Positions 6,012-41,479 of a DNA stretch of 64,000 nucleotides are shown here, one piece after another. How positions within the stretch are numbered: the first letter of the stretch is position 1; every line of letters starts with the position of its first letter. Origin of the DNA: Balanoglossus misakiensis (Eukaryota; Animalia; Hemichordata). The translations under genes and the position numbers were made by a program. The stretch is taken from the NCBI GenBank assembly GCA_040954595.2, contig CM082589.2, positions 10,986,894-11,050,893 on the forward strand, given 5' to 3'. A model generated the notes under the pieces. The model saw nothing but the letters and a program-made list of their open reading frames with translations, made no database searches and was not told the DNA's origin.

Positions 6012-9000
6012 GTGAGTGAAATTTTGAGTTGTGAAGACATTGTGATTTTGTAAGTTTTTAGTTGGTGTCTTTATATCGTGACAATAATAATAGTAATAAT
6101 TAAAGCTGCAAGCAGCATTGTCCGGGCCCAAGCTCTATTATCTGATCTGCACATAATTAATGAGTAGAAACATAATGCTGTGTTTTATCCCATGACATAT
6201 CAAGGTTATATCTATGTTTGGTGCTGATATTGGGTTAAGTAGGTCAAAGGTCATCTGAGGTCACCCAACATTTGGGCAGAAAATTTTGACCCATAGTGGT
6301 GCATGTCCAACAAAAACCAGACCTCTAGCCCTTTTGGTAAGCCCGGAATTAGATATGCACATAAATAATGGGTTAAGCAGGTGTCATAGGTGACCCAAAA
6401 CTTTGGATTTTCATTATGGCCCCATACCTCCAAACGCCAAGGCTGTATCTGCGGTGGATGTCAAGTTATGCAAAAGTAGGTCAAAGGTCACCCGAGGTCA
6501 CCCAACATTTGGGCAAAATATTTTGACCCCATACTGGTCCATGTATAACAAAAACAAAACCTCTAGGTCTATTGGTTCATCATTAATTAGGTATGCGCAT
6601 ATTTAATGAGGTCACCAGAGGTCAAAGGGGTCATGAAAAGTAGCAAAATGTTTTGATCACATACAAATCCACATACATCAAAAACCAAACTTATAGCCCT
6701 ATTGGTTAGCCTGGAATTAGATATGCAGAAAAATGATTCGTCAAAAGTAGGTCAAAGGTCATTGCCAAAATTACAAAATATTTATAGCTTATTCTTGTCA
6801 TATGATGATTCATATCCATAAAAAGAATTTCTGTGCTATCAATTTTTAGGCTAGAAAAGGAATTTTTACTTTTTAATCGTTTTTCACAAAATCCAATATG
6901 GCTGCCATAATCTTCAACCAATCACATTCCCCTTCGCAAACTTGATAGACATCCGTTTAATGACCACACACACCAAATCTTGTGACTCGGTTATCGCCCT
7001 TTCTGGAGGAGAAGATTTTTGAAGTTTTACTATAGTTTTTCGAAAATTCAATATGGCCGCCATAATCTTTGACCAATCACAATGATCTTTGCAAACTTGA
7101 TAGACATCAGTTAGGTGACCACATAACCCAAACGGCGTGACTCGGTTATCGCCGGTTCTGGAGAAGAAGATTTTTGAAATTTTGACCAGATTTCAGAAAA
7201 ACAACTGTAGCAAAAAAACTGCAACATTGACAGCAAAATATCCAATTACAAAAATGATGGGCAGAGGGTATACTACCAGCACGCCAAATCTGAAGTCGAT
7301 CTGACTTGTAGTTTCTGAGATCTGAGATTTGCATTTTTTCAGAAAATCCAATATGGCCGCCATGTCACGTGACTAATTAAGTATTCACAAGTCACTGCAC
7401 ATCTACTCATTGACCTTGACCACTGTAGTAAGTTTGAGAACTGTACCTGCAGCGGTGTCTGAGATCTAGAGCGCGAAAGAAATGAACCAAGAATAAAGAA
7501 AGAATTAAAGCTGCAAGCAGCATTGTCCGGGCCCAAGCTCTATTATCTGATCTGATTATTAGATATGCACATAATTAATGAGTTGAAACATAATGCTGTG
7601 TTTTATCCCCATGAAATATCAAGGTTATATGTATGTTTGTTGTTGATATAGTGTTAAGTAGGTCAAAGGTCACCCAGAGGTCACCCACAATTTGGGCAGA
7701 AAATTTTGACCAACAGTGGTCCATGTCCAACAAAAACCAGACCTCTAGCCCTTTTGGTTAGCCCGGAATTAGGTATGCACATAAATAATGCGTAAAGCAG
7801 GTGTCACAGGTGACCCAAAACTTTGGCTTTTCATTATGGTCCCATACCTCCAAATGTCAAGGCTGTACCTGCTTTGGATGCCGATATATGCAAAAGTAGG
7901 TCAAGGTCATCTGAGGTCATCCAAAATTTGGGCAGAAAATTTTGACCCATAGTGGTCCATGTCAAACAAAAACCGGACATCTAGCCCTTTTGGTTAGCCC
8001 GGAATTAGGTATGCACATAAATAATGAGTAAAGCAGGTGTCACAGGTGACTCAAAACTTTGGCTTTTCATTATGGCCCCATACCTCCAAACGCCAAGGCT
8101 GTATCTGGTGTGGATGTCGAGATATGCAAAAGTAGGTCAAAGGTCACCCGAGGTCACCCAACATTTGGGCAAAATATTTTGACCCCATACTGGTCCATGT
8201 ATAACAAAAACAAAACCTCTAGGTCTATTGGTTCATCATTAATTAGGTATGCGCATATTTAATGAGGTCACCAGAGGTCAAAGGGGTCATGAAAAGTAGC
8301 AAAATTTTTTGATCACATACAAATCCACATACATCAAAAACCAAACTTATAGCCCCATTGGTTAGCCAGGAATTAGATATGCAGAAAAATGATTCGTCAA
8401 AAGTAGGTCAAAGGTCATTGCCAAAATTACCAAAATATTTATAGCTTATTCTTGTCATATGATGATTCATATCCATAAAAAGAATTTCTGTGCTATCAAT
8501 GTTTAGGCTAGAAAAGGAATTTTTACTTTTTAATCGTTTTTCACAAAATCCAATATGGCCGCCATAATCTTCGACCAATCACATTCCCCTTCGCAAACTT
8601 GATAGACATCTGTTTAATGACCACACACACCAAATCTTGTGACTCGGTTATCGCCCGTTCTGGAGAAGAAGATTTTTGAAGTTTTACTATGGTTTTTCGA
8701 AAATCCAATATGGCCGCCATAATCTTCGACCAATCACAATGATCTTCGCAAACTTGATAGACATCAGTTAGGTGACCACATACCCCAAACGGCGTGACTC
8801 GGTTATTGCCGGTTCTGGAGAAGAAGATTTTTGAAATTTTGACCAGATTTCAGAAAAACAACTGTAGCAAAAAAACTGCAACATTGACAGCAAAATATCC
8901 AATTACAAAAATGATGGGCAGAGGGTATACTACCAGCACACCAAATCTGAAGTCGATCTGACTTGTAGTTTCTGAGATCTGAGATTTGCATTTTTTCAGA

Positions 9001-11337
9001 AAATCAAATATGGCCGCCATGTCACGTGACTAATTAAGTATTCACAAGTCACTGCACATCTACTCATTGACGTTGACCACTGTAGCAAGTTTGAGAACTG
9101 TACCTGCAGCAGTGTCTGAGATCTAGAGCGCGAAAGAAATGAACCAAGAATAAAGAAAGAATGAAAGCTGCAAGCAGCATTGTCCGGGCCCAAGCTCTAT
9201 TATCTGATCTGATGCTAATATAGTGTTAAGTAGGTCAAAGGTCACCCGAGGTCACCCAACATTTGGGCAAAATATTTTGACCACATACTGGTCCATGTAT
9301 AACAAAAACAAAACCTCTAGGTCTATTGGTTCATCATTAATTAGGTATGCGCATATTTAATGAGGTCACCAGAGGTCAAAGGGGTCATGAAAAGTAGCAA
9401 AATGTTTTGATCACATACAAATCCACATACATCAAAAACCAAACTTATAGCCCTATTGGTTAGCCTGGAATTAGATATGCAGAAAAATGATTCGTCAAAA
9501 GTAGGTCAAAGGTCATTGCCAAAATTACAAAAATATTTATAGCTTATTCTTGTCATATGATGATTCATATCCATAAAAAGAATTTCTGTGCTATCAATTT
9601 TTAGGCTAGAAAAGGAATTTTTACTTTTTAATCGTTTTTCACAAAATCCAATATGGCCGCCATAATCTTCAACCAATCACATTTCCCTTCGCAAACTTGA
9701 TAGACATCCGTTTAATGACCACACACACCAAATCTTGTGACTCGGTTATCGCCTGTTCTGGAGGAGAAGATTTTTGAAGTTTTACTATGGTTTTTCGAAA
9801 ATCCAATATGGCCGCCATAATCTTCGACCAATCACAATGATCTTCGCAAACTTGATAGACATCAGTTAGGTGACCACATACCCCAAACGGCGTGACTCGG
9901 TTATCGCTGGTTCTGGAGAAGAAGATTTTTGAAATTTTGACCAGATTTCAGAAAAACAACTGTAGCAAAAAAACTGCAACATTGACAGCAAAATATCCAA
10001 TTACAAAAATAATGGGCAGAGGGTATACTACCAGCACACCAAATCTGAAGTCGATCTGACTTGTAGTTTCTGAGATCTGAGATTTGCATTTTTTCAGAAA
10101 ATCCAATATGGCCACCATGTCACGTGACTAATTAGGTATTCACAAGTCACTGCACATCTACTCATTGACCTTGACTACTGTAGCAAGTTTGAGAACTGTA
10201 CCTGCAGCGGTGTCTGAGATCTAGAGCGCGAAAGAAATGAACCAAGAATAAAGAAAGAAAGAAAGAAAGAATTAAAGCTGCAAGCAGCATTGTCGGGCCC
10301 AAGCGCTGATCCGGAATTATATATGCACAGTATGAATGAGTAGAAACAGAATGCTCTAGCTGGTGTTTTATCTCATGACATTACAAGGACGAATGTATTT
10401 TTGCTGCTGAAATAGAGTAAAATAGGTCACCTGATGTCACCCAAATTTCGGGAAATTTCTTTTTACCCATACTGGTCCATGTCCAACAACAACCAAAGCT
10501 CTATTTGTTCGCCTGTAATTAGGTATGTGCATATTTAATGAGGTCAGCAGGTGTCACAGGTGACCCAAAAATTTGGCTTTACATTCTGGTCCCATCCTGG
10601 CCAATGCCAAGGCTGTATGTGCTCCGGATGCCGAGATCTCTGAAAGTAGGTCAAAAGTCACCCGAGGTCACACAACATTTGGGCAATTTTTTTTGCCCAT
10701 ACTGGTCCATGTCCAACAAAAACCAAACCTCTAGGTCTATTGGTTCGCCTGTAATTTGTATGCACATAATTAATGATGTCAGCAGAGGTCAAAGGGTTCA
10801 TGAAACGTAGCAAAATATTATGATTACACACTAATCCACATGCATCAAAAACCAAACGTCTAGCCCTATAGGTTAGCCTGGAAATAGATATGCAGAAATA
10901 ATAATGTGTGAAAAGTAGGTCAAAGGTCATGTGAAAAATCACCAAAAATTTGTAACATATTTTAGTCATATGACGATTAATATCCATAAAAGAATTTGCA
11001 TGCTATCAATTTTTAGACTAGAAAAAGGAATTTCAATTTTTCACTGCTTTTTACAAAATCCAATATGGCCGCCACATTTCTCGACCAATCACAATGCTCT
11101 TCGCAAACTTGATAGAAATCAGTGTAGTGACCATACTCCCCGAATCTTGCGAATCAGTTATCACCAGTTCTGGAGAAGATTGTTGGAGTTTTACTATGGT
11201 TTTTCAAAAATCCAATATGGCTGCCATAATCTTCGACCAATCACAATGTTCTTGGCAAACTTGGAAAAAATTGTGGCAAAAAAACTGGAACTTTGACAGC
11301 ATAATGTCCAATTGCAAAAATGATGAGCAGAAGGTAG

Positions 11338-11394
11338 ACTACCTGCACGCCAAATTTGAAGTCAATCTGACTTCAAATTTTGCGTGCAGGTAGT
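11338..11394. repeat. 26-bp inverted repeat (hairpin, 5-nt loop, 1 mismatch) at the core/unique-sequence junction
   Basis: ACTACCTGCACGCCAAATTTGAAGTC-AATCT-GACTTCAAATTTTGCGTGCAGGTAGT. Confidence 0.9.
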
Positions 11395-11429
11395 TGAGGG
11401 CGAAATACAAAGTTAGAATGGACACAATA

Positions 11430-11748
11430 TGTGATTGGTTAATTAGTCACTAGTGATGTGTGGATTGGTTGTAAATAGTTGAACATTTTCATCTGAATCA
11501 GTGAAAGTTTTGACAGAGGTATTTGTTTGGCTATAAACATATCTTTAATTAAGTGAACAGATCTGTATATTACATTCGTTAACTGTGAAGAGGATGTAGT
11601 ATAGATATGCCAATATATTGAGCTGTATAAACGGAGTGTTAACCCAACACGTCTATGGGGTATGAATCTGAAAGCAACTTCATCCTACGCACTTGAATCC
11701 GAAAACGAATCTGACTCCAGCAGAGGCGTTGACCTGAATCCGGTGAGT
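11430..11748 (+). promoter_or_regulatory. Candidate promoter and first non-coding exon of the Helentron transcript
   Basis: Two inverted CCAAT boxes (GATTGGTT at ~11433 and ~11463), TATAAA at ~11532, strong donor CG|GTGAGT at 11743. Inference only. Confidence 0.4.
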
Positions 11749-12926
11749 AACACGTTCATACAATTACATGCAGTTTTTAAATGTGGTACGAATGAGAGAA
11801 TCGGTGGTTTGAACGTATAATACTTGGTGATGTTGGTTATGAAGTTGTTGTTTAACCAATGGTAGTGTGATTTTGTTTGTTTGTGAGACGATGGCAGTTT
11901 TGTAAGATGTTTTGTATTTTCGTCTCGAGCGAATTCCAATATGGCGGCTATCGTAACGTGTCGAGATTGCTTACTGTATGTAAAGAATCCATGGTACCGT
12001 AAGCATGCATGTTTTGGCAAATGTTATATATATGTTGAGATGGTGGAGTTTGCTGGATTAAACAGAACAATTAGAGGCTGGGTAAATCAGAGTTTCTAGT
12101 GCGTTCCATTCAAGTTGAAATTACGAGATAAGCTTCTTTTTGCAGTCAATGTACAAATGATTATTTAGACTGGAAAGGGTTTAGGCAAGCGAATCTCGTG
12201 ACCGGAAGTGTTGAATTCGGGCGATCGGTGTGTCATGCGTATGTTACGTACAAGCGTTGGTGAAGTATTATTTCTGTGATGTGTATTTGTAAAGAAAAAT
12301 AAACTGTGTGGTATTTATGAATTGGCTTTTCCAAATACGTAAATACTGCATTTATTTCTGTGAATATTGTATGTTTATGTGATCAAAAGCCCAGGGGTTA
12401 TCATTGTTGTTTTTATCAGTTAATTCGATTTGTTTTTGATAATTGACAGGAATTTTGCTTCAAATATTGAACGATCTGTGTGAGTACAAAACAGAAACAT
12501 TGCTGGATTATTTGACGTTTTAGTTGTTTGTAAAAATGTGGGGACAAGCGGAGAATTGGCCAAATATTTTTGTGACCACTGTCTTTAGTGTGTATGCTTT
12601 CTGGTGACGACAGTTGTGCCAAAACATAGACAATGGAATCTGGCAGGAGCTTGAAAAGAACAGTTGACTTGTTAACATATTTTGATGCCATGAAACTATG
12701 TTGTGGGCAAGACAATTTATGTTATCAATCTGTGGTAACCTGTATGTGCCATTTGTATGGAAACTGTGATCAAGATATGAATTTCTGAATATCACAAGCT
12801 TGGCAGTGAATTCATTGTTAATTGTTATCCTGTTTGTAGGCAATTGTATATTTTCATGTATTAGTTTAAATATAAATGTATTGGTAATTAGTTAATTAAA
12901 CAGTTTTTTTTTAATTTTCTTGACAG

Positions 12927-12952
12927 ATTTTGGCTACCAAAGAGTTTGCAAG
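12927..12952 (+). other. Candidate 26-nt 5'UTR micro-exon
   Basis: Preceded by a polypyrimidine tract and GACAG; followed by AAG|GTGAGT. Confidence 0.5.
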
Positions 12953-13439
12953 GTGAGTGTTGGTGCACAACAGTGCATAGTATCATAGATTAACACACTC
13001 AGGTGTACATTGTGTCAAATGTGAATTAGCCTTTTAAATTATTTGTGGAGGAATTGCTTAGTTCTACTATCAGTCACACTGTGGTTAAATATCAGATAGG
13101 ATGATTGGCCACTGCCATGCACCGGCTGTTAATATATAAAAGCACTAGCCCATTTCTTTGAATTTGTTATTCAGGGGTGACGGAAGAAAAACATATTGTA
13201 ATAGTTCATAGAAATGGTGTTTATTGAATACATCAGAAAGGAAGGGACTTGTATGTGCAGAACAATCATTGTGCTATGTGGTGTTACATGTAAGACCATT
13301 GGATAGTGCCATTTCTTACAACAGTGGCTTCAATAAAACATTGGTATGATGTATGTTTCTTGATATACCTGCCTTGTTATTGAACTTGTATATTAAATTG
13401 CTAAGTGTAAATCAGGTCTAAAACAATCGTTTGTGATTT

Positions 13440-15070
13440 GTGTGAGTACATAATGAAAATGCCAGGATGTAAGGTCATACAGGGGTCAAGATTCAAGCCG
13501 TATCAGGTTCTTCAGGAGGGAAATGCGGTGTCAGTGAATACTGTGTGTGTATTTGTCCGTGTGTGTGTCTGTAAGAATGCTATATATGAATGCATACATG
13601 TATGCTTGTCATTGTACTTGGACTTGATATTGCTAACTGTTGGAAATTGTTTTGTGAGGAAATTTCATTCAGATTTGTCTGAATACATTGCAACGTAAAT
13701 GGGAAAATGTCGGGTCATACAGGGTCAGGTCTGAAGCCTTATTTGGTTGTACACAGTGGATGTTGGGGTGTGCATGTATTTGTGTATGTCTGTGCAAATT
13801 CATACATGTATGCCTATCATTGTACTTGGACTTGATGTTGCTTACTGGTGGAAATTGTTTTGTAAGGAAATTCCATTCACATTTGTCTCAGTACAATGCA
13901 ATGTAAATGACAAAATGTCGGGTCATAAAAGGTCAGGTCTGAAGCCCTATTTAGTTGTACACAGTGGATGTTGGGGTGTGCATGTATTTGTGTATGTCTG
14001 TGCAAATTCATACATGTATGCCTATCATTGTACTTGGACTTGATGTTGCTTACTGGTGGAAATTGTTTTGTAAGGAAATTCCATTCACATTTGTCTCAGT
14101 ACAATGCAATGTAAATGACAAAATGTCGGGTCATAAAAGGTCAGGTCTGAAGCCCTATTTAATTGTACACAGTGGATGTTGGGGTGTGCATGTATTTGTG
14201 TATGTCTGTGCAAATTCATACATGTATGCCTATCATTGTACTTGGACTTGATGTTGCTAACTGGTGGAAATTGTTTTGTAAGGAAATTCCATTCACATTT
14301 GTCTCAGTACAATGCAATGTAAAGGACAAAATGTCGGGTCATAAAAGGTCAGGTCTGAAGCCCTATTTAGTTGTACACAGTGGATGTTGGGGTGTGCATG
14401 TTTTTTGTGTATGTCTGTGCAAATTCATACATGTATGCCTATCATTGTACTTGGACTTGATATTGCTAACTGCTGGAAGTGATTTTGTAAGGAAAATTCA
14501 TTCACATTTGTCTGAGTACGTTGCAACGTAAATGAGAAAATGTCGGGTCATACAGGGTCGGGTCTGAAGCCTTATTTGGTTGTACACAGTGGATGTTGGG
14601 GTGTGCGTGTATTTGTTTATATCTGTGCAAATTCATACATGTATGCCTATCACTGTACTTGGACTTGATATTGCTAACTGGTGGGAATGATTTTGAAGTG
14701 AAATTTTATTCAGATTGGGCTGAGTTCATTGCAACGTAAATGACAAAATGTCGGGTCATACAGGGTCAGGTCTGAAGCCGTATCTGGTTCTTCAGTGGGT
14801 AAATGCTGTGTCCGCGAATACTGTGTGTATTGATCTTTGTATATGTGTGTGTATGTCTGTCTGTCTATATTAATGCATAACTGTATGCATGTCATTGTAC
14901 TGGTACTTGTTATTGCTAATTAGTGGAAATGGTTTTTAAAGAGAATTTAACTCAGATTTGCCTGAGCACATTGTCATGGGAATGCCAGAATGTAAGGTCA
15001 TACAGGGGTCAGGGTTGAAGCCTAATCGTGTTTTCCAGCTGAAAAAAGTGTGTCTGTGAATACTGTGTGT
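13440..15070. repeat. 208-bp tandem repeat upstream of the RepHel ORF (~5 good copies plus degenerate flanks)
   Basis: Near-identical short ORFs start at 13747, 13955 and 14163 (period 208); recurring AATGTCGGGTCATA..GGTCTGAAGCC. Confidence 0.9.
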
Positions 15071-15277
15071 ATATGTATACAGGCATGCAGATTTGTGTCC
15101 ATTATGTGTAGTCGCTGTTGAGACATCGTTTCTGTAAATCACTTCTGTCTGTAAAAGTTCCAATATTTTTTACTGGTTATAATCACTAGTGATGTGATTT
15201 GATGTGAAGGTAATCTGAAATCTGGTGTTCAATGGATAATAACAACCTAATCAGAGAGTATATTTGGTTTGTTCCAG

Positions 15278-18200
15278 ATGCCACGCAGTAGATACTGGAG
15301 GAAGAAGAGGAGTCAGAAGAAAGAAGATCCTGTTCTGTCTCAGAACAGGAGTGATGGAGAGGAGCCTGTCCTCTTAAAAAACAGGAATACAGAGATAGTA
15401 ACAGAGGAGTCTGTCCTCTTAAAAAACAGGAATACGGAGATTGTAACAGAGGAGTCTGTCCTCTTAAAAAACAGGAATACGGAGATTGTAACAGAGGAGC
15501 CTGTCCTCTTGAAAAACAGGAATACGGAGATTGTAACAGAGGAGTCTGTCCTCTTGAAAAACAGGAATACGGAGATTGATATAATCAGAAATAGTGACAG
15601 TTTGAGAGCAAATAAAGGAACAAAAGTGAACAATGGCATATTTGAGGAAAATGATTCATCTGATGACCTGTATATTAGCAGTGGAACAGGGGGCAGCGTA
15701 TATTCATTCTCCCCACTAACTTCTGATGTATGTGAACAGCTGTGTTGCAAATTTGATATTGTAGATAAAAATAATATTGATATTTTCAATAAACTTGGAA
15801 GTGTTACGATTGGAGAACCATGCAAGTACAGGTCAATAATTGGTGATGGGAACTGTTATTTTAGGTCCTTGTCATATTGTATAAGTGGGACTGAGCGAAA
15901 TCACGGAGTTATTCGAACGGCCATTGTGAATCACTTGAAAGCCAATGAGGAAGTATATTCAGGATGGGTAAGGTTAGATGGATATACATCAGTTGATGAT
16001 TATATTGCAAAGTCCAGAATGGATTGTCTAGGAACATGGGCTACAGAAACTGAAATCCTTGCCACTACTAATCTCTTCAATCTGAATATTTTTGTGTACA
16101 GTTTCGATAGTTGGTGGAAACATTCATGTAATATAATCAATAAAAACAATGTTGATAGAGGTGTTGGTATATACCTGAACCATCGCAATAGAAACCATTA
16201 TGAAGTAGTTAAGTGTGTGAAGACATCACATTTGGAAACTTGTCACTGTACACACATTGATTGCAATGAAGTTGTCCCTGTTGAGATTGTGACTGGCGAG
16301 TGCATGGATGTGACAGACGATGGGAACTTGACACATAATGGTTTGAAAAAAGAATTCCATTTAGATGAAGTATTTGCAACGCATGATGAACTTCAGTGTC
16401 TTGCACCAGTAAGAGGTAAGAAACGTGGAAGAGCCATGAGTGAACGGCTGAAAAAGAACCTCAGACGTAAAGAGTATGAAAGTGAAAAAACTAAATTAAA
16501 TGAATTAAATGTATCCAATTGTGTGAAGAGATCTAAAGCAGTTAAACAATATGAACGTTATCAGACTGATTCTGAATATAGAAGCAACATAAAATTGGAT
16601 AGTAGAAAGAGGTACCGTGAAGATGTACTATATAGAGAAGAGAAAAAACGTAGACTGACCGGACGATACAATTGTGATTTAGTATTTCGTGAAGCACAGA
16701 AAACTCTTTGTTCAGAACAGTGTGTGGCAAAATATGAAAAAGTTCCACTATACAGAGAACAAAAGAAGAGTCAGAGTGCAGCACAATGTGTTGACAAGTA
16801 CAAAAAAGATGAGAAGTTCCGAGAGCACAAGAAGAGTCAGAATGCTGCACAATGTCTTGATAAATACAAAAAAGATGAGAAGTTCCGAGAACGCAAGAAG
16901 AGTCAGAGTGCAGCACAATGTGTTGATAAGTATCGGAAAGATAAGCAGTTTCAAAGACGTCAGAGAAAGCGATGTTTAGAACGGTACCAGCAGGATCAGC
17001 ATTACAAAGAGATTGTATTAGAGAGAAGTCGTATTGAGGGGAAAGTGAAGAATATGAAAAAGCAAAATATAGAAGATGTTATAATTGATTTTAGGAATCA
17101 TACTTCAGTTGGGCCAAATTGTGTATGTTCAGTTTGTCACCGGCGACTTTTTCGAAAGCAGGTCCTTGTTTGTAACATGGATAAATATGTGTCCAGAAAT
17201 GCGTTTTGTGAAATGAATGCGAAGAAATGCATAACAGAAGATTATGTACACAACTGCAGTAAATTATGTATTGTTGATTGTCCCCTCAAGAGCAGTGCCG
17301 CCAGTAAATTATGGATTTGTCACACATGCCATAGCAAACTCTTGCGTGCAGAGATGCCTGTTCAAGCTGCTGCAAACAATCTTGATGTCAAACCAATACC
17401 TAATGAATTAAAATGCCTGAATTCGTTAGAGCAACATTTAATTGCACTGCATATTCCTTTCATGAAAATGATGGCGCTACCAAGAGGTGGACAAAATGGT
17501 GTTCATGGACCTGTTGTTTGTGTTCCATCTAATATAGAAAAAGCCACAAGTATTTTGCCTAGAGGTGAATTGGATGACCAGATGATAAAGGTGAAATTAA
17601 AGCGGAAATTAAGTTACAAAGGTTGTTATCAGTATCAATTTGTAAACAAAGGACACATACAAAATGCACTGGAATACCTACAGAAAAATAACAAGTGGTA
17701 TAGTGATGTGAAATTCAATCTCACTTGGGAAAATACTCTTGAAAAGACTGAAGAAAACATTGATGCTGAAGGTAATGAAAACACTGTGGAAAAAACTTCA
17801 GATACTGAACGCAATGATGTAGCATCAGACACAGAAGGTGGAAACGAGCCTGAAAAAGATACTGATGGAATATTCATGGACACATGCTTTCAACCAGTTG
17901 ACATTGGTCAGGATATTCTGGATTATCACTTTGACGATATCGCTTGTGTTGCTCCTGGTGAGGATAATAAACCTGTTAGAGTGTTGATGGAAAAGTTCAA
18001 TGAGGCAAAGTGCTTTCCTGTGATTTTCCCAACGGGGTCACCAACATTTTACGATGATCGAGAGGTTAAGATAACAATAGGACGATATTTGCAAAGTCGT
18101 CTAATGAATGCAAGCAACAGGTTTGCAAAAAGCACAGACTATATATTTTATGCACAATACCGTTCAGAACTTGACCAGGTTGTATCAAATGTGTCAATTG

Positions 18201-22384: not shown

Positions 22385-22460
22385 AAATTGACATTTGTAG
22401 GATAAACCTCATTCAGGTACATGATTCAATAATGGCCTTTGTTACGGAAAAGTTGAGTGA

Positions 22461-22636
22461 TGGTACCAGACCTTGTTGCTTCACCAAGGCAAAGTGTGTG
22501 CTTCTGGTGGTACGACATGACCGGGCAAGTGATCTGATTTGGCGGGCGACTTGTACTTGTCGCTGCGCTCCTTGCCTGGTCATACTGCCAGAAGCACACT
22601 AGGGTGCACAGCAATGAGGTCTGGGAGTGAGACTAG
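22461..22636. mobile_element. Possible small degenerate MITE-like insert
   Basis: GC-richer patch bounded by CCAGACC and GGTCTGG(GAGTGAGACTAG); only a short inverted match. Confidence 0.25.
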
Positions 22637-23476: not shown

Positions 23477-23550
23477 TATGTATGTATGTATGTATGTATG
23501 TATGTATGTATGTATGTATGTATGTATGTATGTATGTATGTATGTATGTA
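23477..23550. repeat. (TATG)n microsatellite
   Basis: About 18 perfect units. Confidence 0.95.
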
Positions 23551-25039
23551 CCTATTGGTATTTTAAAAATATATAATTATGTAAAATCTATGTAAAATAG
23601 GTCAAGTACTTTTAGGGCAGTTTAGATTATTTTGTTCAAAAGATTTTTTTTTTCTCCCAAAGTGTTACTATTGGTTTGCTGGCCAAATAGGATGTATTTA
23701 CAATATAATATTACTGTATCATAGGCTATTAATTTGGTATTGTATGAACATTTCTCTGCTGTTTCAATATGCAGGCTCAGCATAGACTTCATCATTCCTT
23801 TAAGTTTGCATTTAATTTTTGTCAAAGATACATAAGATACTGTCTTTTGAACATGTTATTATTATTATGAATTTTTAGTCAAGATATTTATCCTCAACAA
23901 GAAATGAATAGACAAGTTTTAAACGTGTCTTGGACATTTTGAGTGAAGATGGATATTATCATTATAAAATTAACAGTAATCTTTGAAAATGTCAAATTTA
24001 TTATCAAACATGGCTGTGATCACCAACAGTTTTAGAACAGTTAGTATAAATTTTGAGTCAATATACTGTATGTTTGAAATGGTAATTTTTATTCTCAAAG
24101 AAGATTATGTCTGTTGAGTATTTTATGTCAACATAGTTGCTTTTGTTAGAACATCACTAAAATTTCTTGTCAAACATGCTTTTGTCTATTGAATATATCA
24201 TGACAGATATTTATTTTGAGTCAAGACTTTTGCGTCTATTAGAACACATTCAAATATTTGGTGTTGAAAATTGTACACTTCATATAAATGTTAACTTCAA
24301 ATGTACAATGAAGAATCAAAGATTATGTTACCGTACAAAGATGGAACTATTATCATGATTTAATTGGCATTCATGATTTAATCCTATGAATGGTATTTCA
24401 ATCCAACGTAAATATTTACAGTTGACAGGAATACAGCAATGTATTTTTATGTTCGGCTTATGGTGAAAAAGCCTTATTATCATGCTAGTGTGTTTTCACA
24501 TCTGTACTGAATAGTGCATCGAGGGCTAGCATCAGATGTATATAGAGTGTGGAAACCGTGTATTTTAACAATGGGATGTACACTGCATCATCGGCTCTGT
24601 GGACTTTCAACCAAACAAAACCTCATCCACATGTGACAAAATTAACTTGATCACTATCACAAGATTGTGTGTCTGAGACCATAACTGACTATTACAGGAT
24701 GATGAGTGTGACACATGGACATGGGCCACAATGATGTGCTCTTCACCAAGCTCAACCATTTCCCATGAATGTTAGGAATGACATTCTGTTACTGGACTAT
24801 TTCTGTTATAGGATGAATAGATTAGAATAATGTTGTCTTCATCCTCCATGGGAATTGTTTTATAACCTATCGTGTTATCAACATAAATAGAAATTTGAGA
24901 AATATTTACACATAGAAATAACTATTATTTATACATGTTGTTATGTAACTTAATTATGTGTGGACCTTGCGTTAGCAATTGTTATTTATTGAAGCCAACA
25001 GTAGTCAGCACGCAATATAGTCTTGTAAAAGATTCTAAG

Positions 25040-25999
25040 AGCCAATGATTATTGAGAACTGTGTAAGTGAAATTCGCCAGTGGATGCATGATAACATGCT
25101 TATCCTTAACGATAGTAAGACCGAAGTTATTAGATTCTCTTCTAAGTTTGCTCATAGGGACCGACCACGAGAGTGTGATGTACAAGTCGGGGATATCAGC
25201 GTCCATTCATCACCTTCAGTGATTGACCTCGGTGTCACATTTGATGTTTCGATGACCATGACATCACATGTTTCCAGTTTGTGTAAATCAGCGTCGACGT
25301 CTTTTGCTTTGTGGAATATTAGTATAAAAAATCCGGAATTGTCTAGACCAAGAATCAACTGGAAAACTTGTTCATGCTTTTGTAACTTCTAGGTTAGACT
25401 ATTGTAACAGCCTTCTTTATGGTCTGCCAAATTATCAAATCAATAAGTTACAGTCTATTCAGAATGCCGCTGCACGTTTAGTCACTAAAAGCAGGAAAAC
25501 AGAACAATATACTAGTATTACACCACTATTTAAGAGATTGCACTGGCTTCCTATACAGAAACGGATTGATTTTAAAATTCTTTGTTTAACCTACAAAGTT
25601 TTAAATAATATGGCTCCGTCGTACCTGAAGGAGCTCATAAGTGTTCGTTCTTCTGTCCGCAACCTTCGTTCTACAACTGATTGTTCTTTTATTCTTGATC
25701 ATCCCAACGTTAACACAGTCTTTTATGGTGACAGGTCATTCTCTACAGGAGCACCACGGTTGTGGAACAAGGTACCGGTTCCACTGCGTAGCAGTGAGAG
25801 TTTTAATTTTTTTTTAATCAAACCTTAAAAGGTTTTTATTCAGGGACTGACTTTTTATCCAATATTTAACCATTGTCTATTTTATTATATAGTTTTAGTG
25901 TTTTACTTGTCTTTGTATTTTAAGCAGCTATGTACAGCACTTTGGGATGTCTTTTTACATGGAAAGCGTTTTTTAAGAATTAAATATTATTATTATTAT
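25040..25999 (+). mobile_element. 5'-truncated, frameshifted L2/CR1-group LINE inside the Helentron
   Basis: LNDSKTEV, LVHAFVTSRLDYCNSLLYGLP, IQNAAARLV, LHWLPIQKRIDFKILCLTYK..APSYL; ends in a (TAT)n tail. Confidence 0.85.
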
Positions 26000-28553
26000 G
26001 AATACTTAATTTATTCATTATTCTGCCCGGCGATTGACAGTAAAACCATGATCTGGATATGTTTCAATTTAAATGTGCAATTCGGTAGCAGGTGAATTGT
26101 GGGTAGCTAATTGTGTTTCATCATGCATTTGTTAAAAACTATGGACACTTCTATTCTGTGTTTTTGCAATAACCACAAAGACCTATAGTGCTGTCAATCT
26201 TATATTTGTTTCAGATGTATAACCTGTCATCAGCTCAATCATTGCTTTTTTGACAGAAGCCTTTCACTTAAGTCATATCTTTATTTTAGTGCACATTATA
26301 GGTCGCTGACCACTTAAGACAATTTCTGTGTCTGATTTCATTTTTTCTTTGTACTCTGAGTGTAAAATATATCAGGTTTGGCAGGTGCCCTTGATCCCAT
26401 GATACGGAAAGGTAGGTCTATCAGGTGTTTTATCTCATGAAATATCAAGGTTGTATCTATGTTTGGTGCTGATATAGAATAAAGTAAATAAAAGGTTACC
26501 GAAAGGTCAACCAAAATTTTGTCAAAAAAATACATCCCAATCTGATCCATGTCAAACAACAACCATACTTCTACCTCTATTAGTAAGCCTGGAATTAGGT
26601 ATGCACATACTTAATGAGTTAGGTGTAAGACTCCAGTAGGTGTTCCAACAATACAAATGCCAAAGCTGGACACTGCGATTTGACACCATATTGGTCCATG
26701 TCCAACAGAAACCAAACCTCTCGCCCGCTCTAATGGTTAGTCTGGAATTATATATGTGCATAATTAATGAGGTAAGATGAAAGACTCCAAAAGGTGTTCA
26801 ATCCCTCCAAATACCAAGGCTGTATCTGCTCTGGCTGCCGAGATATGGGAAAGTAGGTCAAAGGTCACCTGCGGTCACCCTATTTTTGGCCCAAATTTTT
26901 TTACCCCATACTAGTCATGGTAAGTGTCCAACAAAAACCAAACGTCTAGCCCTATTGGTTCACCGGGCATTAATGTCAATTATTAATGAGGTCACTTGTG
27001 AGAAACCCATTGGGCGTTCCATCCCTACAAATGACAAGTCTGTATCTGCTCTGGATACCGAGATATGAAAAAGTAGGTCAAAGGTCACCTAAAATTTGGG
27101 CAAATTTTTTTGACCCCATACTAGTCCATGTCCAACAAAAACCAAAACTCTAGCTCTATTGGTTCACCTGTAATTAGGTATGTGCATATTTAATGAGGTG
27201 AGCAGGTGTCACAGGTGACCCAAAAATGTGGCTTTACATTTTGGTCCCATCCTGCCAAATGCCATGGCAGTATCTGCTCTGGATACCGAGATATGAAAAA
27301 GTAGGTCAAAGGTCACCTAAAATTTGGGCAAATTTTTTTGACCCCATACTAGTCCATGTCCAACAAAAACCAAAACTCTAGCTCTATTGGTTCACCTGTA
27401 ATTAGGTGTGTGCATATTTAATGAGGTCAGCAGGTGTCACAGGTGACCCAAAAATGTGGCTTTACATTTTGGTCCCATCCTGCCAAATGCCATGGCAGTA
27501 TCTGCTCTGAATGCTGAGATATGCGAAAGTAGGTCAAAGGTCAACAAAGGTCACCCAACATTTGGGCAAAAAATTTTGATCCCATACTGGTCCATGTCCA
27601 ACAAAAACCAAACCTCTAGCTCTATTGGTTCGCCTGTAATTAGCTATGCACATAATTAATGAGGTCAAAGGGGTCATGAAAAGTAGCAAAATATTTTGAT
27701 CACACACTAATCCACATTCATCAAAAACCAAACGTCTAGCCTTATAGATTAGCCTGGAATTAGATATGCAGAAATAACGCGTGATAAGTAGGTCAAAGGT
27801 CATGTGAAAAATCGCCAAAAAATTGTAACATATTTTAGTCACATGACGATTGATATCCATAAAATGAATTTATATGCTATCAATTTTTAGACTAGAAAAA
27901 GGAATTTCAATTTTTCACTGCTTTTTACAAAATCCAATATGGCCACCATAATCTTCGACCAATCACAATGCTCTTTGCAAACTTGATAGACATCAGTGTA
28001 GTGACCATACTCCCCGAATCTTGCGACTCAGTCATCGCCCGTTCTGGAGAAGAAGATTTTTGGAGTTTATCTATGGTTTTTCGAAAATCCAATATGGCCG
28101 CCATAATCTCCGACCAATCACAATGATCTTCGCAAACTTGATAGACATCAGTTAGGTGACCACATACCCCAAACCCCGTGTCTCGGTTATCACCGGTTCT
28201 GGAGAAGAAGATTTTTGAAATTTAAGCCAGATTTCAGAAAAAACATTGTAGCAAAAAAACTGCAACTTCGACAGCAAAATTTCCAATTACAAAAATGATG
28301 GGTAGAAGGTAGTCTACCTGCATGCCAAATTTGAAGTCGATCTGACTTGTAGTTTCTGAGATCTGAGATTTGATTTTTTTCAGAAAATCCAATATGGCCG
28401 CCAGGTCACGTGACTAATTAAGTATTCACAAGTCACTGCACATCTACTCATTGACCTTGACCACTGTAGCAAGTTTGAGAAGTGTACCTGCAGCGGTGTC
28501 TGAGATCTCGTTGCCCAAAGAATTGACACAAGAATAAAGAAAGAAAGAAAGAA

Positions 28554-29953
28554 TTAAAGCTGCAAGCAGCATTGTCCGGGCCCAAGCTCTATTATCTGAT
28601 CTGATGCTGATATAGTGTTAAGTAGGTCAAAGGTCACCCGAGGTCACCCAACATTTGGGCAGACAATTTTGACCCATAGTGGTCCATGTCCAACAAAAAC
28701 CAGACCTCTAGCCCTTTTGGTTAGCCCGGAATTAGGTATGCACATAAATAATGAGTTAAGCAGGTGTCACTGGTGACCCAAAACTTTGGCTTTTCATTAT
28801 GGCCCCTTACCTCCAAACGCCAAGGCTGTATCTGCTGTGGATGTCGAGATATGCAAAAGTAGGTCAAAGGTCACCCGAGGTCACCCAACATTTGGGCAAA
28901 ATATTTTGACCCCATACTGGTCCATGTATAACAAAAACAAAACCTCTAGGTCTATTGGTTCATCATTAATTAGGTATGTGCATATTTAATGAGGTCAACA
29001 GAGGTCAAAGGGGTTATGAAAAGTAGCAAAAATTTTTGATCACATACAAATCCACATACATCAAAAACCAAACTTATAGCCCTATTGGTTAGCCTGGAAT
29101 TAGATATGCAGAAAAATGATGCATCAAAATTAGGTCAAAGGTCATTGCCAAAATTACCAAAATATTTATAGCTTATTCTTGGCATATGATGATTCATATC
29201 CATCAAAAAGAATTTCTGTGCTATCAATTTTTAGGCTAGAAAGGGAATTTTTACTTTTTAATTGTTTTTCACAAAATCCAATATGGCCGCCATAATCTTC
29301 GACCAAACACATTCCTCTTCGCAAACTTGATAGACATCTGTTTAATGACCACACACACCAAATCTTGTGACTCGGTTATCGCTGGTTCTTGAGAAGAAGA
29401 TTTTTGAAATTTTACTAGGGTTTTTCGAAAATCCAATATGGCCGCCATAATCTTGGACCAATCACAATGATCTTCGCAAACTTGATAGACATCAGTTAGG
29501 TGACCACATACCGCAAACCCCGTGTCTCGGTTATCACCGGTTCTGGAGAAGAAGATTTTTGAAATTTAAGCCAGATTTCAGAAAAAAAATTGTAGCAAAA
29601 AAACTGCAACTTTGTCAGCATAATTTCCAATTACAAATATGATGGGCAGAAGGTAGTCTACCAGCATGCCAAATTTGAAGTCGATCTGACTTGTAGTTTC
29701 TGAGATCTGAGATTTGCATTTTTTCAGAAAATCCAAGATGGCCGCCAGGTCACGTGACTAATTAAATATTCACAAGTCACTGCACATCTACTCATTGACC
29801 TTGACCACTGTAGCAAGTTTGAGAACTGTACCTGCAGCGGTGTCTGAGATCTAGAGCGATAAAGAATGGAACCAAGAATAAAGAAAGAAAGAAAGACAGA
29901 AAAACCCCAACGAAACCAATAGGGCCCAAGCGCTGGTATGCGCTTGGGCCCTA
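28554..29953 (+). mobile_element. Non-autonomous Helentron unit 5, complete, nested in the 3' end of unit 4
   Basis: Type-A 5' end; type-a hairpin TAGGGCCCAAGCGC-TGGTAT-GCGCTTGGGCCCTA ends at 29953. Confidence 0.85.
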
Positions 29954-31435
29954 AAAATTCCAACGAAACCAATAGGGCCCAAGCGCTTGCTTGCGCTTGG
30001 GCCCTAATTAAAGCTGCAAGCAGCATTGTCGGGCCCAAGCGCTGATCTTGAATTACATATGCACAGTATGAATGAGAAGAAACAGAATTTTCTATCAGAT
30101 GTATTATCTCATGACATAAAAGGATGTGTGTATTTTTGCTGCTGAAATAGAGTAAAGTAGGTCAAAGGTCACCTCAGGTCACCCAACATTTGGGCAAATT
30201 TTTTTTACCCATACTGGGCCATGTCCAACAAAAACCAAAACTCTAGCTCTATTGGTTCACCTGTAATAAGGTATGTGCATATTTAATGAGGTCAACAGGT
30301 GTCACAGGTGACCCAAAAATGTGGCTTTACATTTTGGTCCCATCCTGCCAAATGCCAATGCTGTATCTGTTCTGGATGCTGAGATACGCGAAAATAGGTC
30401 AAAGGTCACCAGAGGTCACCCAACATTTGGGCAAAAAATTTTGATCCCATACTGGTCCATGTCCAACAAAAACCAAACCTCTAGCTCTATTGGTTCGCAC
30501 GAAATTAGCTATGCACATAATTAATGAGGTCAGCAGAGGTCAAAGGGGTCATGGAAAGTAGCAAAATATTTTGATCATTCAATTATCCACATGCATCAAA
30601 AACCAAACGTCTACCCCTATAGGTTAGCCTGGAATTAGATATGCAGAAATAATAACGCGTAAAAAGTAGGTCAAAGGTCATGTGAAAAATCGACAAAAAT
30701 TTGTAACATATTTTAGTCACATGACGATTGATATCCATGAAAAGAATTTGTATGCTATCAATTTTTAGTCTAGAAAAAGGAATTTCAATTTTTCATTGCT
30801 TTTTACAAAATCAAATATGGCCGCCATAATCTTCGACCAATCACAATGCTCCTGGCAAACTTGATAGACATCAGTGTAGTGACCATACTCCCCAAATCTT
30901 GCGACTCAGTTATTGCCCGTTCTGGAGAAGAAGATTTTTGGAGTTTTACTATGGTTTTTCGAAAATCCAATATGGCCGCCATAATCTTCGACCAATCACA
31001 ATGATCTTCGCAAACTTGATAGACATATGTTAGGTGACCACATACCTCAAACCGCGTGACTCGGTTATCACCGGTTCTGGAGAAGAAGATTTTTGAAATT
31101 TTGACCAGATTTCAGAAAAACAACTGTAGCAAAAAAACTGCAACATTGACAGCAAAATATCCAATTACAAAAATGACGGGCAGAAGGTAGACTACCTGCA
31201 CGCCAAATCTGAAGTCGATCTGACTTGTAGTTTCTGAGATCTGAGATTTGCATTTTTTCAGAAAATCCAATATGGCCGCCATGTCACGTGACTAATTAAA
31301 TATTCACAAGCCACTGCACATCTACTCATTGACCTTGACCACTGTAGCAAGTTTGAGCAGTGTACCTGCAGTAGTTTCAGAGATCTTGTTGGCCGAAGAA
31401 TTGACAGGAGAATAAAGAAAGAAAGAAAGAAAGAA

Positions 31436-34400
31436 TTAAAGCTGCAAGCAGCATTGTCCGGGCCCAAGCTCTATTATCTGATCTGATTATTAGATATGCA
31501 CATAATTAATGAGTAGAAACATAATGCAGTGTTTTATCCCATGAAATATCAAGGTTATATCTATGTTTGGTGCTGATATAGTGTTAAGTAGGTCAAAGGT
31601 CACCCAGGGGTCACCCACAATTTGGGCAGAATATTTTGACCCATAGTGGTCAATGTCCAACAAAAACCAGACCTCTAGCCCTTTTGGTTAACCCGGAATT
31701 AGGTATGCACATAAATAATGCGTAAAGCAGGTGTCACAGGTGACCCCACAACTTTGGCTTTTCATTATGGCCCCATACCTCCAAACGCCAAGGTTGTACC
31801 TGCTTTGGATGCTGAGATATGCAAAAGTAGGTCAAAGGTCATCTGAGGTCACCCAAAATTTGGGTAGAAAATTTTGACCCGTAGTGGTCCATGTATAACA
31901 AAAACAAAACCTCTAGGTCTATTGGTTCATCTGTAATTAGGTATGTGCATATTTAATGAGTAAAGCAGGTGTCACAGGTGACCCAAAACTTTGGCTTTTC
32001 ATTATGGCCCCATACCTCCAAACGCCAAGGCTGTATCTGCTGTGGATGTCGAGATATGCAAAAGTAGGTCAAAGGTCACCCGAGGTCATCCAACATTTGG
32101 GCAAAATATTTTGACCCCATACTGATCCATGTCCAGAAAAAAACAAACCTCTAGGTCATTTGGTTCATCTGTAATTAGGTATGCGCATATTTAATGAGGT
32201 CAGCAGAGGTCAAAGGGGTCATGAAAAGTAGCAAAAATTTTTGATCACATACAAAACCACATACATCAAAAACCAAACTTATAGCCCTATTGGTTAGCCT
32301 GGAATTAGATATGCAGAAAAATGATGCGTCAAAAGTAGGTCAAAGGTCATTGCCAAAATTACCAAAATATTTATAGCTTATTCTTGTCATATGATGATTC
32401 ATATCCATAAAAAGAATTTCTGTGCTAACAATTTTTAGGCTAGAAACAGAATTTTTACTTTTTAATCGTTGTTCACAAAATCCAATATGGCCGCCAAAAT
32501 CTTCGACCAATCACAATGATCTTCGCAAACTTGATAGACATCTGTTTAATGACCACACACACCAAATCTTGTGACTCGGTTATCGCCGGTTCTTGAGAAG
32601 AAGATTTTTGAAATTTTACTAGGGTTTTTCGAAAATCCAATATGGCCGCCATAATCTTCCACCAATCACAATGATCTTCGCAAACTTGATAGACCTCAGT
32701 TTGGTGACCACATACCCCAAACCGCGTGACTCGGTTATCGCCGGTTCTGGAGAAGAAGATTTTTGAAATTTTGACCAGATTTCAGAAAAACAACTGTAGC
32801 AAAAAAACTGCAACATTGACAGCAAAATATCCAATTACAAAAATGATGGGTAGAAGGTAGACTACCTGCACACCAAGTTTGAAGTCGATCTGACTTGTAG
32901 TTTCTGAGATCTGAGATTTGCATTTTTTCAGAAAATCTAATATGGCCGCCAGGTCACGTGACTAATTAAAAATTCAAGGGTTCAATGCACATCTACTCAT
33001 TGACCTTGACCACTGTAGCAAGTTTGAGAAGTGTACCTGCAGTGGTGTCTGAGATCTAGAGCGACAAAGAATTGACACAAGAATAAAGAAAGATTAAAGC
33101 TGCAAGCAGCATTGTCCGGGCCCAAGCTCTATTATCTGATCTGATTATTAGAAATGCACATAATTAATGAGTAGAAACATAATGCTGTGTTTTATCCCAT
33201 GATATATCAAGGTTATATCTATGTTTGGTGTTGATATAGTGTTAAGTAGGTCAAAGGTCACCCAGAGGTCACCCACAATTCGGGCAGAAAATTTTGACCC
33301 ATAGTGGTCCATGTCCAACAAAAACCAGACCTCTAGCCCTTTTGGTTAGCCCGGAATTAGGTATGCACATAAATAATGAGTTAAGCAGGTGTCACAGGTG
33401 ACCCAAAACTTTGGCTTTTCATTATGGCCCCATACCTCCAAATGCCAAGGCTGTATCTGCTGTGGATGTCGAGATATGAAAAAGTAGGTCAAAGGTCACC
33501 CGAGGTCACCCAACATTTGGGCAAAATATTTTGACCCCATAATGGTCCATGTATAACAAAAACAAAACCTCTAGGTCTATTGGTTCATCTGTAATTAGGT
33601 ATGTGCATATTTAATGAGGTCAGCAGAGGTCAAAGGGGTCACGAAAAGTAGCAAAATTATTTGATCACATACAAATCCACATAAATCAAAAACCAAACTT
33701 ATAGCGCTATTGGTTAGCCTGGAATTAGATATGCAGAAAAATGATGCGTCAAAAGTAGGTCAAAGGTCATTGCCAAAATTACCAAAATATTTATAGCTTA
33801 TTCTTGGCATATGATGATTCATATCCATTAAGAGAATTTCTGTGCTATCAATTTTTAGGCTAGAAAGGGAATTTTTACTTTTTAATCGTTTTTCACAAAA
33901 TCCAATATGGCCGCCATAATCTTCGACCAATCACATTCTTCTTCGCAAATTTGATAGACATCTGTTTAATGACCACACACACCAAATCTTGTGACTCAGT
34001 TATCGCCGGTTCTTGAGAAAAAGATTTTTGAAATTTTACTAGGGTTTTTCGAAAATCCAATATGGCCGCCATAATCTTCGACCAATCACAATGATCTTCG
34101 CAAACTTGATAGACCTCAGTTTGATGACCACATACCCCAAACCGCGTGACTCAGTTATTGCCGGTTCTGGAGAAGAAGATTTTTGAAATTTTGACCAGAT
34201 TTCAGAAAAACAACTGTAGCAAAAAAACTGCAACATTGACAGCAAAATATCCAATTACAAAAATGATGGGTAGAAGTTAGACTACCTGCACACCAAATTT
34301 GAAGTCGATCTGACTTGTAGTTTCTGAGATCTGAGATTTGCATTTTTTCAGAAAATCCAAGATGGCCGCCAGGTCACGTGACTAATTAAAAATTCAAGGG

Positions 34401-34666
34401 TTCAATGCACGACTACTCATTGACCTTGACCACTGTAGCAAGTTTCAGAAGTGTAACTGCAGCGGTGTCTGAGATCTAGAGCGACAAAGAATTGACACAA
34501 GAAAAAAGAAAGAAAGAAAGAAAGAAAGACAGAAAAACCCCAACGAAACCAATAGGGCCCAAGCGCTGGTATGCGCTTGGGCCCTAAAGAAAGAAGAAAG
34601 AAGGAAAGACAGAAAAACCCCAACGAAACCAATAGGGCCCAAGCGCTGGTATGCGCTTGGGCCCTA
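31436..34666 (+). mobile_element. Non-autonomous Helentron unit 7; body 31436-33093, 3' end at 34587-34666
   Basis: Type-A 5' end; shares AAAATTCAAGGGTTCAATGCAC with unit 8; type-a hairpin. Confidence 0.8.
33094..34586 (+). mobile_element. Non-autonomous Helentron unit 8, complete, innermost
   Basis: TTAAAGCTGC at 33094; type-a hairpin ends at 34586; flanks rejoin as (GAAA)n. Confidence 0.85.
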
Positions 34667-35616
34667 AAAATTCCAACGAAACCAATAGGGCCCAAGCGCT
34701 TGCTTGCGCTTGGGCCCTAAAAACCCCAACGAAACCAATACGGGCCCAAGCCTGGCTTGGCTTGGGCCCGTAAAGAAAGAAAAACCCCAACGAAACCAAT
34801 ACGGGCCCAAGCCTGGCTTGGCTTGGGCCCGTAAAGAAAGAAAAACCCCAACGAAACCAATACGGGCCCAAGCCTGGCTTGGCTTGGGCCCGTAATTAAA
34901 GCTCCAAGCAGCATTGAAGGGGCCCAAGCATAGAGATAATAACCATTAGACTCCATTCAGGGTTGTACCATTCAATTGCGTAGGCTGTATTTGCTCTGGA
35001 TGTGGAGATATGGGGAAGTAGGCAACCACCCGAAATGGATGTCCTACAAGTACAAACACAACAACCACAAGTGAACTTCTACGTTATGTAAGGACTTCAG
35101 TTAAGTACTTCAAAGGTCAGCTGAGGGTACCCAAAAATTGGGCCAAAAATTTGGATTCCTATTTGGTTCATATTCAAGACAACGGAAAATTCTCGCCCTT
35201 TGGGTTTTTAAAATTAGGTATGGCCATAATAATGAGTTACGCAAGTAAGTTACAGGTGGCCCTAGGAATTTAGCATTTCATGACGGTCCTACCCTACCCC
35301 TCCAAACACGTGGCTATATATGATGTGCATGCTAACATATGGAAAGCAGGTCAATGGACACCTGAGGTCATTCAAAAATTTGACAGAAAAATTTCATTCC
35401 TGTTTATGTCTTGTGCAACAAATCCTACATTTGCAGCCCTTTCACTTTGCCTAACATTAGGTATGCACGTAATACATGAATCAAGCAGGTGTCAAAGGTA
35501 TCCCCCTGTATTTGGCATTTCATGATAGTTTCATCCCTCCAAATACCAAAGCTGCACCTGTACAACGGGATGAGATATGGCACTCTATGACAGAGGTCAT
35601 CCAAATCACCTTATAC

Positions 35617-41363: not shown

Positions 41364-41479
41364 TTAAGGATGTACGATCAGTAAAATTGAAAGCATTGTC
41401 ATTTCTTTTAATCGTGAATTTTCGTTTCTGATTTGTATGTATAATGAAAATCCATTTTGGGTCACTGCACTTGTTTTCG

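Follow-up and report, generated by a model that had tools for sequence, protein, structure and literature searches.

A well-preserved self-nest of Helentron and HINE elements around an open transposase gene in Balanoglossus misakiensis

How do eight left ends and eight large terminal hairpins of one transposon family come to lie at a single locus with the hairpins confined to two stacks? We addressed this question in the hemichordate Balanoglossus misakiensis, using a stretch of 64,000 nucleotides (GenBank assembly GCA_040954595.2, contig CM082589.2, positions 10,986,894 to 11,050,893 of the forward strand), hereafter called the window and numbered from its first letter. A sequence-only reading had proposed that the ends pair like balanced parentheses and that the elements had inserted into one another. 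Our analysis shows that the stack is real: a well-preserved self-nest of Helentrons and their non-autonomous HINE/DINE-1 partners that contains an open transposase gene.

Scanning both strands of the entire window with mismatches allowed placed the 20-base left end on the + strand at 6100, 7505, 9162 (one mismatch), 10272, 28554, 30008, 31436 and 33094, precisely where it had been claimed, and also at 34896 (+ strand, one mismatch), a ninth copy absent from the earlier list. The remaining matches, two at the five-mismatch limit (23097 and 36049), both lack the subterminal repeat. Large hairpins with 14-pair stems (~-19 kcal/mol) terminate at 29953, 30006, 34586, 34666, 34719, 34772, 34833 and 34894; they form the two stacks at the positions given in the sequence-only reading and fall, from left to right, into its three sequence types as a, b, a, a, b, c, c, c. 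A ninth, diverged hairpin occupies 40280-40313. All eight left ends and all eight large hairpins share one orientation. Pairing the mapped ends last in, first out (LIFO) reproduced the proposed parse, 1(2(3(4(5)6(7(8))))), to the right of which lies an older unit 9; nesting is up to six levels deep (Table 1). The nest consists of seven non-coding copies and one, unit 4, with an open Rep-helicase-endonuclease gene. The non-coding units 1-3 and 5-8 measure 1.1-1.7 kb and contain internal repeats of ~236 bp and 155 bp.

Which kind of element is this? Published HINE/DINE-1 elements have a 5' subterminal inverted repeat (subTIR), an inverted repeat and a microsatellite at one end, a 3' subTIR with a short palindrome at the other, and T|T as target (PMC7492417, PMC4067079). 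Read on the minus strand, the copies show this layout at both ends and have central repeats in between. Since the conventional reading is that of the minus strand, both hairpin stacks are piles of conventional 5' ends; the 5' and 3' labels of the sequence-only reading follow the gene of unit 4 and run opposite to the convention published for such elements. The subTIRs match over 12 bases in units 4 and 6, 11 in units 1-3 and only 10 in units 5, 7 and 8, the range given for Helentrons and HINEs being 11-15 bases. All seven sites rebuilt from host halves read A|A on the + strand, as predicted by a T|T target that is not duplicated on insertion, and the number of terminal As varies (unit 8 is one short); variable terminal Ts have been reported for Helentrons (PMC4067079). 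In its stem-loop placement unit 4 agrees with the HLE2-reverse group, where, in the direction of the gene, a stem-loop comes before the left inverted repeat (PMC11417382): here, a palindrome at 10277-10288 precedes the subTIR, with the gene on the + strand. Canonical Helitrons (HLE1) are distinguished by a 5' TC, a 3' hairpin followed by CTRR, an A|T target and no inverted repeats, whereas these ends bear subTIRs and their sites are A|A.

The internal insertions share a narrow target within the elements themselves. All six internal insertion sites have 11 bases in common, AAAGAAAGA|AA, and this 11-mer occurs 16 times in the window, every time in the repeats of these elements. Once the guests are removed, the microsatellites of the hosts rejoin in phase. 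Each copy carries the (CTTT)n repeat 53-80 bases from its conventional 5' end, and the repeat accounts for few of the available AA sites (12 of 175 in unit 5, 17 of 195 in unit 8). Unit 4 has 2060 AA sites. By simple arithmetic, conditional on landing in the given host, six chance landings in the repeat would have a probability of ~1e-8. Two junctions, 30006/30007 and 34894/34895, are head-to-tail; unit 1 abuts an (AAT)-rich flank on one side and the end of unit 9 on the other. In-phase rejoining and the common 11 bases at six sites support the earlier proposal of serial self-insertion rather than a concatemer, and the 11-base site is a testable target. A lepidopteran element, to go by a title (PMID 20217059), reportedly disrupts (GAAA)n; there, the target is a host repeat, unlike the element-borne repeat here.

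The bodies and the severed hairpins provide a second line of evidence. Over the last 1 kb, bodies are 98.0-98.3% identical among units 1-3, 93.4% between units 4 and 6, and 93.3-95.5% among units 5, 7 and 8, and the body tree supports the grouping of units 1-3 (100/99) and of 4 with 6 (100/100). Under the LIFO parse, the mutually similar units 1-3 receive type-c hairpins and the type-B units 4 and 6 receive type-b hairpins, an agreement noted in the sequence-only reading that our alignments bear out. Microsatellite remainders follow the same pairing. The cut bodies of units 1, 2, 3, 4, 6 and 7 retain 2, 2, 5, 4, 5 and 2 AAAG repeats and their loose hairpin ends 2, 2, 0, 0, 0 and ~7; bodies with two repeats thus pair with remainder-bearing hairpins and bodies with four or five with remainder-free ones. 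Six headless bodies can be joined to six loose hairpins in 720 ways, among which 12 fit the body groups, 36 fit the remainders and four fit both. LIFO is one of these four and first-in-first-out is not, although the cut-off between short and long remainders was set after inspection of the data and 4/720 is therefore indicative rather than a strict p-value. LIFO partners also have the longest subTIR matches, with 12 bases where B meets b and 11 where A meets c.

Unit 4 carries an enzyme gene. It spans 10271-30006 (19.7 kb without the guest) and contains a RepHel gene overlooked in the sequence-only reading, set in a unique core between a HINE-like left arm (10272-11373) and a HINE-like right arm (~26417-28552). 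Pfam assigns OTU-like, DUF6570, Rep (Helitron_like_N), PIF1 helicase and Exo_endo_phos domains to its 2377-codon frame. Rep and helicase lie within the one frame (PF14214, E 5.9e-30; PF05970, E 4.2e-28), with an HUH motif at 1127, YxxxYxxK at 1357 and Walker A at 1720. Rep motif 2, FYRVEFQQRGSPHTH, carries both signatures considered diagnostic of Helentrons, F/Y-x-R before the motif and S between G and P (PMC4067079). The C-terminal endonuclease, of the apurinic/apyrimidinic type (PF03372, residues 2167-2354), scores 30.5 bits against a cut-off of 24.5, and DUF6570, a marker domain of HLE2 (PMC11417382), is present (PF20209, E 4.4e-21). The solved structure of this enzyme kind that our search retrieved is that of the canonical Helitron Helraiser (7lcc). 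Among viral contigs, the RepHel core yielded 12 candidates and no confirmed relative; no RNA run matched positions 4800-12800 of the window, a stretch that excludes the gene. The frame also contains in-frame tandem repeats of 45 bp and 66 bp (15358-15578 and 16755-16932), and a LINE-like element has left a broken 3' piece, tailed by (ATT)n, elsewhere in unit 4 (25039-25990).

The arms of unit 4 bear on how such elements are built. A fold-back palindrome (Table 1) stands exactly where the left arm ceases to resemble a HINE body; it resembles a template-switch scar and may reveal how a reversed gene joined these ends, and the left arm itself may be a captured HINE. We considered a separate element inside unit 4 and discarded it: between 10272 and 28554 there is no further left end or large hairpin of the family, and 10272-30006 is therefore treated as one element. 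The arms contain direct repeats of ~850 bases that are 88% identical (10419-11263 and 27298-28140), and recombination between them would remove the gene and leave a HINE like unit 6. Unit 6 matches the left arm over its first 150 bases and the right arm thereafter (~93%), a pattern that would be expected of a deletion derivative of a relative of unit 4. An origin of unit 6 in place from unit 4 itself was rejected, as the two are 88-95% alike in 100-base windows versus 98% among the older units 1-3.

Taken together, these features point to a probable mechanism, in which a RepHel-endonuclease acting in trans serially placed copies drawn from several source subfamilies into T|T of the (CTTT)n beside a resident 5' hairpin. 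The anatomy and the common site are read directly from the window, while the enzymology and the timing are what we infer from them. At each event, the protein would copy a donor from elsewhere in the genome and insert it on the T-rich strand at T|T of the (CTTT)n of a host; such a strand preference would explain the single orientation. The host would be severed, its long body remaining on the left and a hairpin end of 53-80 bases on the right, so that bodies would stack to the left and hairpins, in reverse order, to the right. Two events (1 against 9 and 4 against 6) would have used the T|T at the very end of a resident, giving the head-to-tail junctions. Guests differ from their hosts by 4.5-13%, units 1-3 by only 2%, and most guests would therefore derive from other source copies and not from duplication on the spot. 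The idea that the stack records insertion order survives in part: 9 precedes 1, 1 precedes 2, 2 precedes 3, 3 precedes both 4 and 6, 4 precedes 5, and 6 precedes 7, which precedes 8; at the two head-to-tail junctions the record is looser, and 4 and 6 are unordered with respect to each other.

Do comparable structures occur outside the window? Contigs matching the region came from three runs of one sample; they are short, skip microsatellites and may be the source of the assembly, and are thus not independent evidence. Over 27000-36000, 13,008 (run X1), 6,706 and 100 contigs of the three runs align, which indicates a very abundant family. The body end of unit 4 is joined directly to the type-b end, without unit 5 (28553 to 29953), in at least six contigs of X1 and at least four of X2, with sides of 18-26 letters. 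The contig joints listed also include a type-c end that leads, through a few AAT, into a left end. The exact end patterns found nothing in metagenome contigs or viral contigs. A looser pattern retrieved a distant family with the same 15-base left end at 65 metagenome loci and one genome locus; after exclusion of five of the 66 as GC-rich chance matches, 63 ends in 61 loci were kept. Fifty of these ends have ordinary A-rich flanks, seven directly follow a hairpin head to tail (two of them possibly one locus), three come after the body and microsatellite of another copy, nested in that microsatellite, and three follow bare (AAT)n. Junctions of body, microsatellite and new end occur in these distant relatives at L035, L062 and L065, and L003:580-730 shows two stacked hairpins with a repeat remainder between them. 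The same nested and head-to-tail intermediates are thus common in the wider clan. On L066, the single genome locus and a contig of a bacterial genome bin, the transposon end is of the animal type and its flank is typical, which suggests that the bin contains host DNA.

Several observations weigh against serial insertion in its simplest form. The bodies are mosaic: units 5, 7 and 8 (group a) are not a supported clade, appearing together in 51% of bootstrap trees, and unit 5 has 11 variant sites in common with the right arm of unit 4. The same three units join an A-type left end to an a-type hairpin with only 10 matching bases. Among the contig joints listed, a unit-7-type body end is joined to a type-c end (33083 to 34771; two contigs, depth 1036, side 31) and a further cross-join connects 28543 to 34773 (side 20), so body-hairpin linkage is not one-to-one in the genome. 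The linkage envisaged in the sequence-only reading is accordingly good within the locus and, given the mosaic bodies and the contigs joining a unit-7-type body to a type-c end, not strict. No contig of the three runs spans the stack, and none represents an empty allele. The junctions of units 1 and 2 are identical, as are their hairpin modules, and duplication would give the same result. Finally, type B is confined to the two siblings 4 and 6, a coincidence that hints at joint arrival.

Joint arrival is the basis of a rival explanation that we consider unlikely, in which 4(5), 6(7(8)) or a tandem of 6 and 4 was pre-nested elsewhere and entered as a block when the transposase overran an inner stop, leaving a structure that is nested all the same but in which the local order is unrecorded. 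End bypass is known for Helitrons (PMC5148889), both blocks finish in a near-identical pair of a and b hairpins (97.8% over 134 bases), and units 4 and 6, both of type B, abut at a circle-like junction. Nevertheless, an outer 5' start combined with the first 3' stop would yield many heads on one body, where eight and eight are observed, and the window-by-window divergence of units 4 and 6 noted above indicates that they do not come from one circle. More improbable again is the local tandem duplication of units 1-2 (or 1-3), with the body and, separately, the 61-base hairpin module multiplied, the counts equal by chance and the other units nested. Units 1-3 are indeed 98% alike over 1 kb, and the last two hairpin modules are identical 61-mers. 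Duplication would, however, need two events in place of one, and the repeat splits, 5+0 in unit 3 and 2+2 in units 1 and 2, match on both sides; the cut after the second repeat recurs in unit 7, which is not related by duplication, and units 1, 2 and 3 vary in length and left-end structure, the deletion in unit 3 being common to unit 5.

Two further explanations have hardly any claim to credence. The first supposes a rolling-circle concatemer in which the bodies subsequently lost their hairpins and slippage multiplied these at two sites; it draws on the tandem Helitron arrays known elsewhere (PMC5148889) and on the two head-to-tail junctions here. It is already largely refuted by the pairing and remainder test, since the copies differ by 2-13%, hairpin types track body groups in reverse and the repeat remainders are complementary. 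The other, no more plausible, is an artefact of assembling a very high-copy repeat next to a satellite, a concern raised by the 13,008 X1 contigs on 9 kb, none of them spanning. Mis-joining would hardly produce eight distinct bodies with base-exact complementary junctions, and similar intermediates exist in unrelated data. Serial self-insertion into the (CTTT)n thus remains the explanation that we favor.

How new is this arrangement? Helentrons and their HINE/DINE-1 partners were described by Thomas, Vadnagara and Pritham in 2014 (PMC4067079), and Cg_HINE is a further example from oyster (PMC7492417). The copies studied here resemble them in the RepHel protein with C-terminal endonuclease and OTU domain, the subTIRs, microsatellite, central tandem repeats, T|T sites and variable Ts. 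Helentron-Da-40 also has its gene antisense to its ends, as do unit 4 and the HLE2-reverse group (PMC4067079, PMC11417382). Unlike our locus, the elements in the accessible parts of these two HINE papers are reported neither as self-nested nor as inserted in their own microsatellite, and 'nested' occurs zero times in the oyster main text (PMC4067079, PMC7492417). A close precedent is FoHeli, a Helitron2 of Fusarium oxysporum, in which multiple short (<200 bp) 5' ends in one orientation were attributed to self-insertion (Chellapan et al. 2016, PMC5148889); up to five 5' ends per copy are described for Fusarium Helitron2 (PMC13342296). Stacked 5' ends of one orientation and, in FoHeli3/4/5, a reversed gene (HLE2-reverse; PMC11417382) are common to both systems. 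The accessible FoHeli descriptions concern many 5' ends per single 3' end, that is, products of onward transposition, whereas all eight bodies and ends are in place here, and the microsatellite target and animal host also differ. A frog Helentron has two left ends (PMC11417382).

More distant parallels exist. For maize Helitrons, multiple termini were proposed to stem from nested intermediates, and these elements tend to insert in or near other Helitrons; they are canonical Helitron1 elements (TC...CTAG ends), with hypothetical intermediates and, as far as that account goes, no fixed internal target (PMC3288121). Strand-specific targeting of telomeric repeats, proposed for telomeric Helitrons of Paramecium (PMC13085455), similarly sets orientation by insertion into a simple repeat, but the target there is a host repeat and not one borne by the element. 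Work on Calliphora (PMC3630058), oyster satellitomes (PMC11136912) and a review (PMC12628747) treat nested or complex loci in general and, in their accessible parts, no ordered self-nest. Our search of the open literature, with subscription papers and Fusarium supplements beyond its reach, turned up no account of a complete balanced nest, nor of an own-microsatellite target; those supplements (Table S6 and Supplementary Fig. 5) may contain fuller nests. The suggestion that ordered nesting was undescribed therefore needs narrowing: self-insertion giving multiple 5' ends is a published principle, put forward for Fusarium Helitron2, while the completeness, depth and exact target seen here appear not to have been published within the literature searched.

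Table 1 Features of the nest, with positions in the window.
Feature	Position	Strand	Remarks
Unit 1 body	6099..7503	-	Non-coding HINE; conventional 3' end (small palindrome and subTIR) 6100-6134; ~236-bp and 155-bp repeats; 2 AAAG at cut end
Unit 2 body	7504..9160	-	Four 236-bp anchors; 2 AAAG repeats remain
Unit 3 body	9161..10270	-	Shortest; left-end deletion in common with unit 5; 5 AAAG repeats remain
Unit 4 body	10271..28552	-	Autonomous-type Helentron, type-B end; 4 AAAG repeats remain
Fold-back palindrome	11338..11394	.	57 bases, near-perfect; 26 pairs, 3-base loop, -28.8 kcal/mol
208-bp tandem repeat	13589..14783	.	5.7 copies; upstream of transposase frame
Open frame, 2377 codons	15251..22384	+	First Met 15278; antisense to conventional ends
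Unit 5	28553..29953	-	Intact HINE, type-a hairpin; sits in microsatellite of unit 4
Unit 4 severed conventional 5' end	29954..30006	-	Type b; no repeat remainder
Unit 6 body	30007..31434	-	Type-B end, head-to-tail with unit 4; 5 AAAG repeats remain
Unit 7 body	31435..33093	-	2 AAAG repeats remain
Unit 8	33094..34586	-	Innermost copy; intact HINE, type-a hairpin
Unit 7 severed 5' end	34587..34666	-	Type a; long repeat remainder
Unit 6 severed 5' end	34667..34719	-	Type b; no remainder
Unit 3 severed 5' end	34720..34772	-	Type c; no remainder
Unit 2 severed 5' end	34773..34833	-	Type c; 2 repeats
Unit 1 severed 5' end	34834..34894	-	Type c; 2 repeats
Unit 9	34895..40313	-	Older relative, own hairpin 40280-40313; unit 1 at its end

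The surroundings of the nest are rich in other repeats. Body pieces of unit 9 are 68-76% identical to unit 8 and are interrupted by two LINE-like insertions on the minus strand, at ~35618-36460 (TGAT-type tail) and ~37190-39715 (RVT_1 matches). Just left of the stack, exon-like pieces at 4904-6014 gave only a sub-threshold zinc-finger match in Pfam (E 0.055); from a DGAxxMxG motif, we take them to be parts of a probable hAT/ZNF862-type transposase gene, for which no later exon was found in the window. The last 19 kb of the window (44804-64000) consist of an unrelated 78-bp AT-rich satellite of ~246 copies with higher-order periods of 157 and 231, and a 169-bp tandem repeat of 6.7 copies lies at 914-2037. 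Dispersed inverted copies at 2910-3283, 41387-41729 and 41040-42272 (71-83%) resemble small non-autonomous DNA transposons.

The locus displays, in one place, the complete intermediate that had been postulated to account for multiple 5' ends in Helitron2 copies. It also provides an open Helentron transposase gene, matching ends and natural targets. Subfamilies can be partly ordered in time within ~1% sequence change per copy, a figure deduced from units 1-3. Classification of these elements is unaffected, but annotation will miscall such nests as satellites or headless fragments. A bolder reading, which we put forward tentatively and hold to be possible without being probable, is that the 5' microsatellite of HINE/DINE-1 elements is a self-made landing pad, with the transposase at a resident hairpin inserting into the adjacent (CTTT)n in a fixed register. 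If so, animal Helentrons in general would use self-nesting as a safe harbour, and repeat-to-repeat deletions within a nest would exchange hairpin ends between bodies and give rise to new subfamilies.

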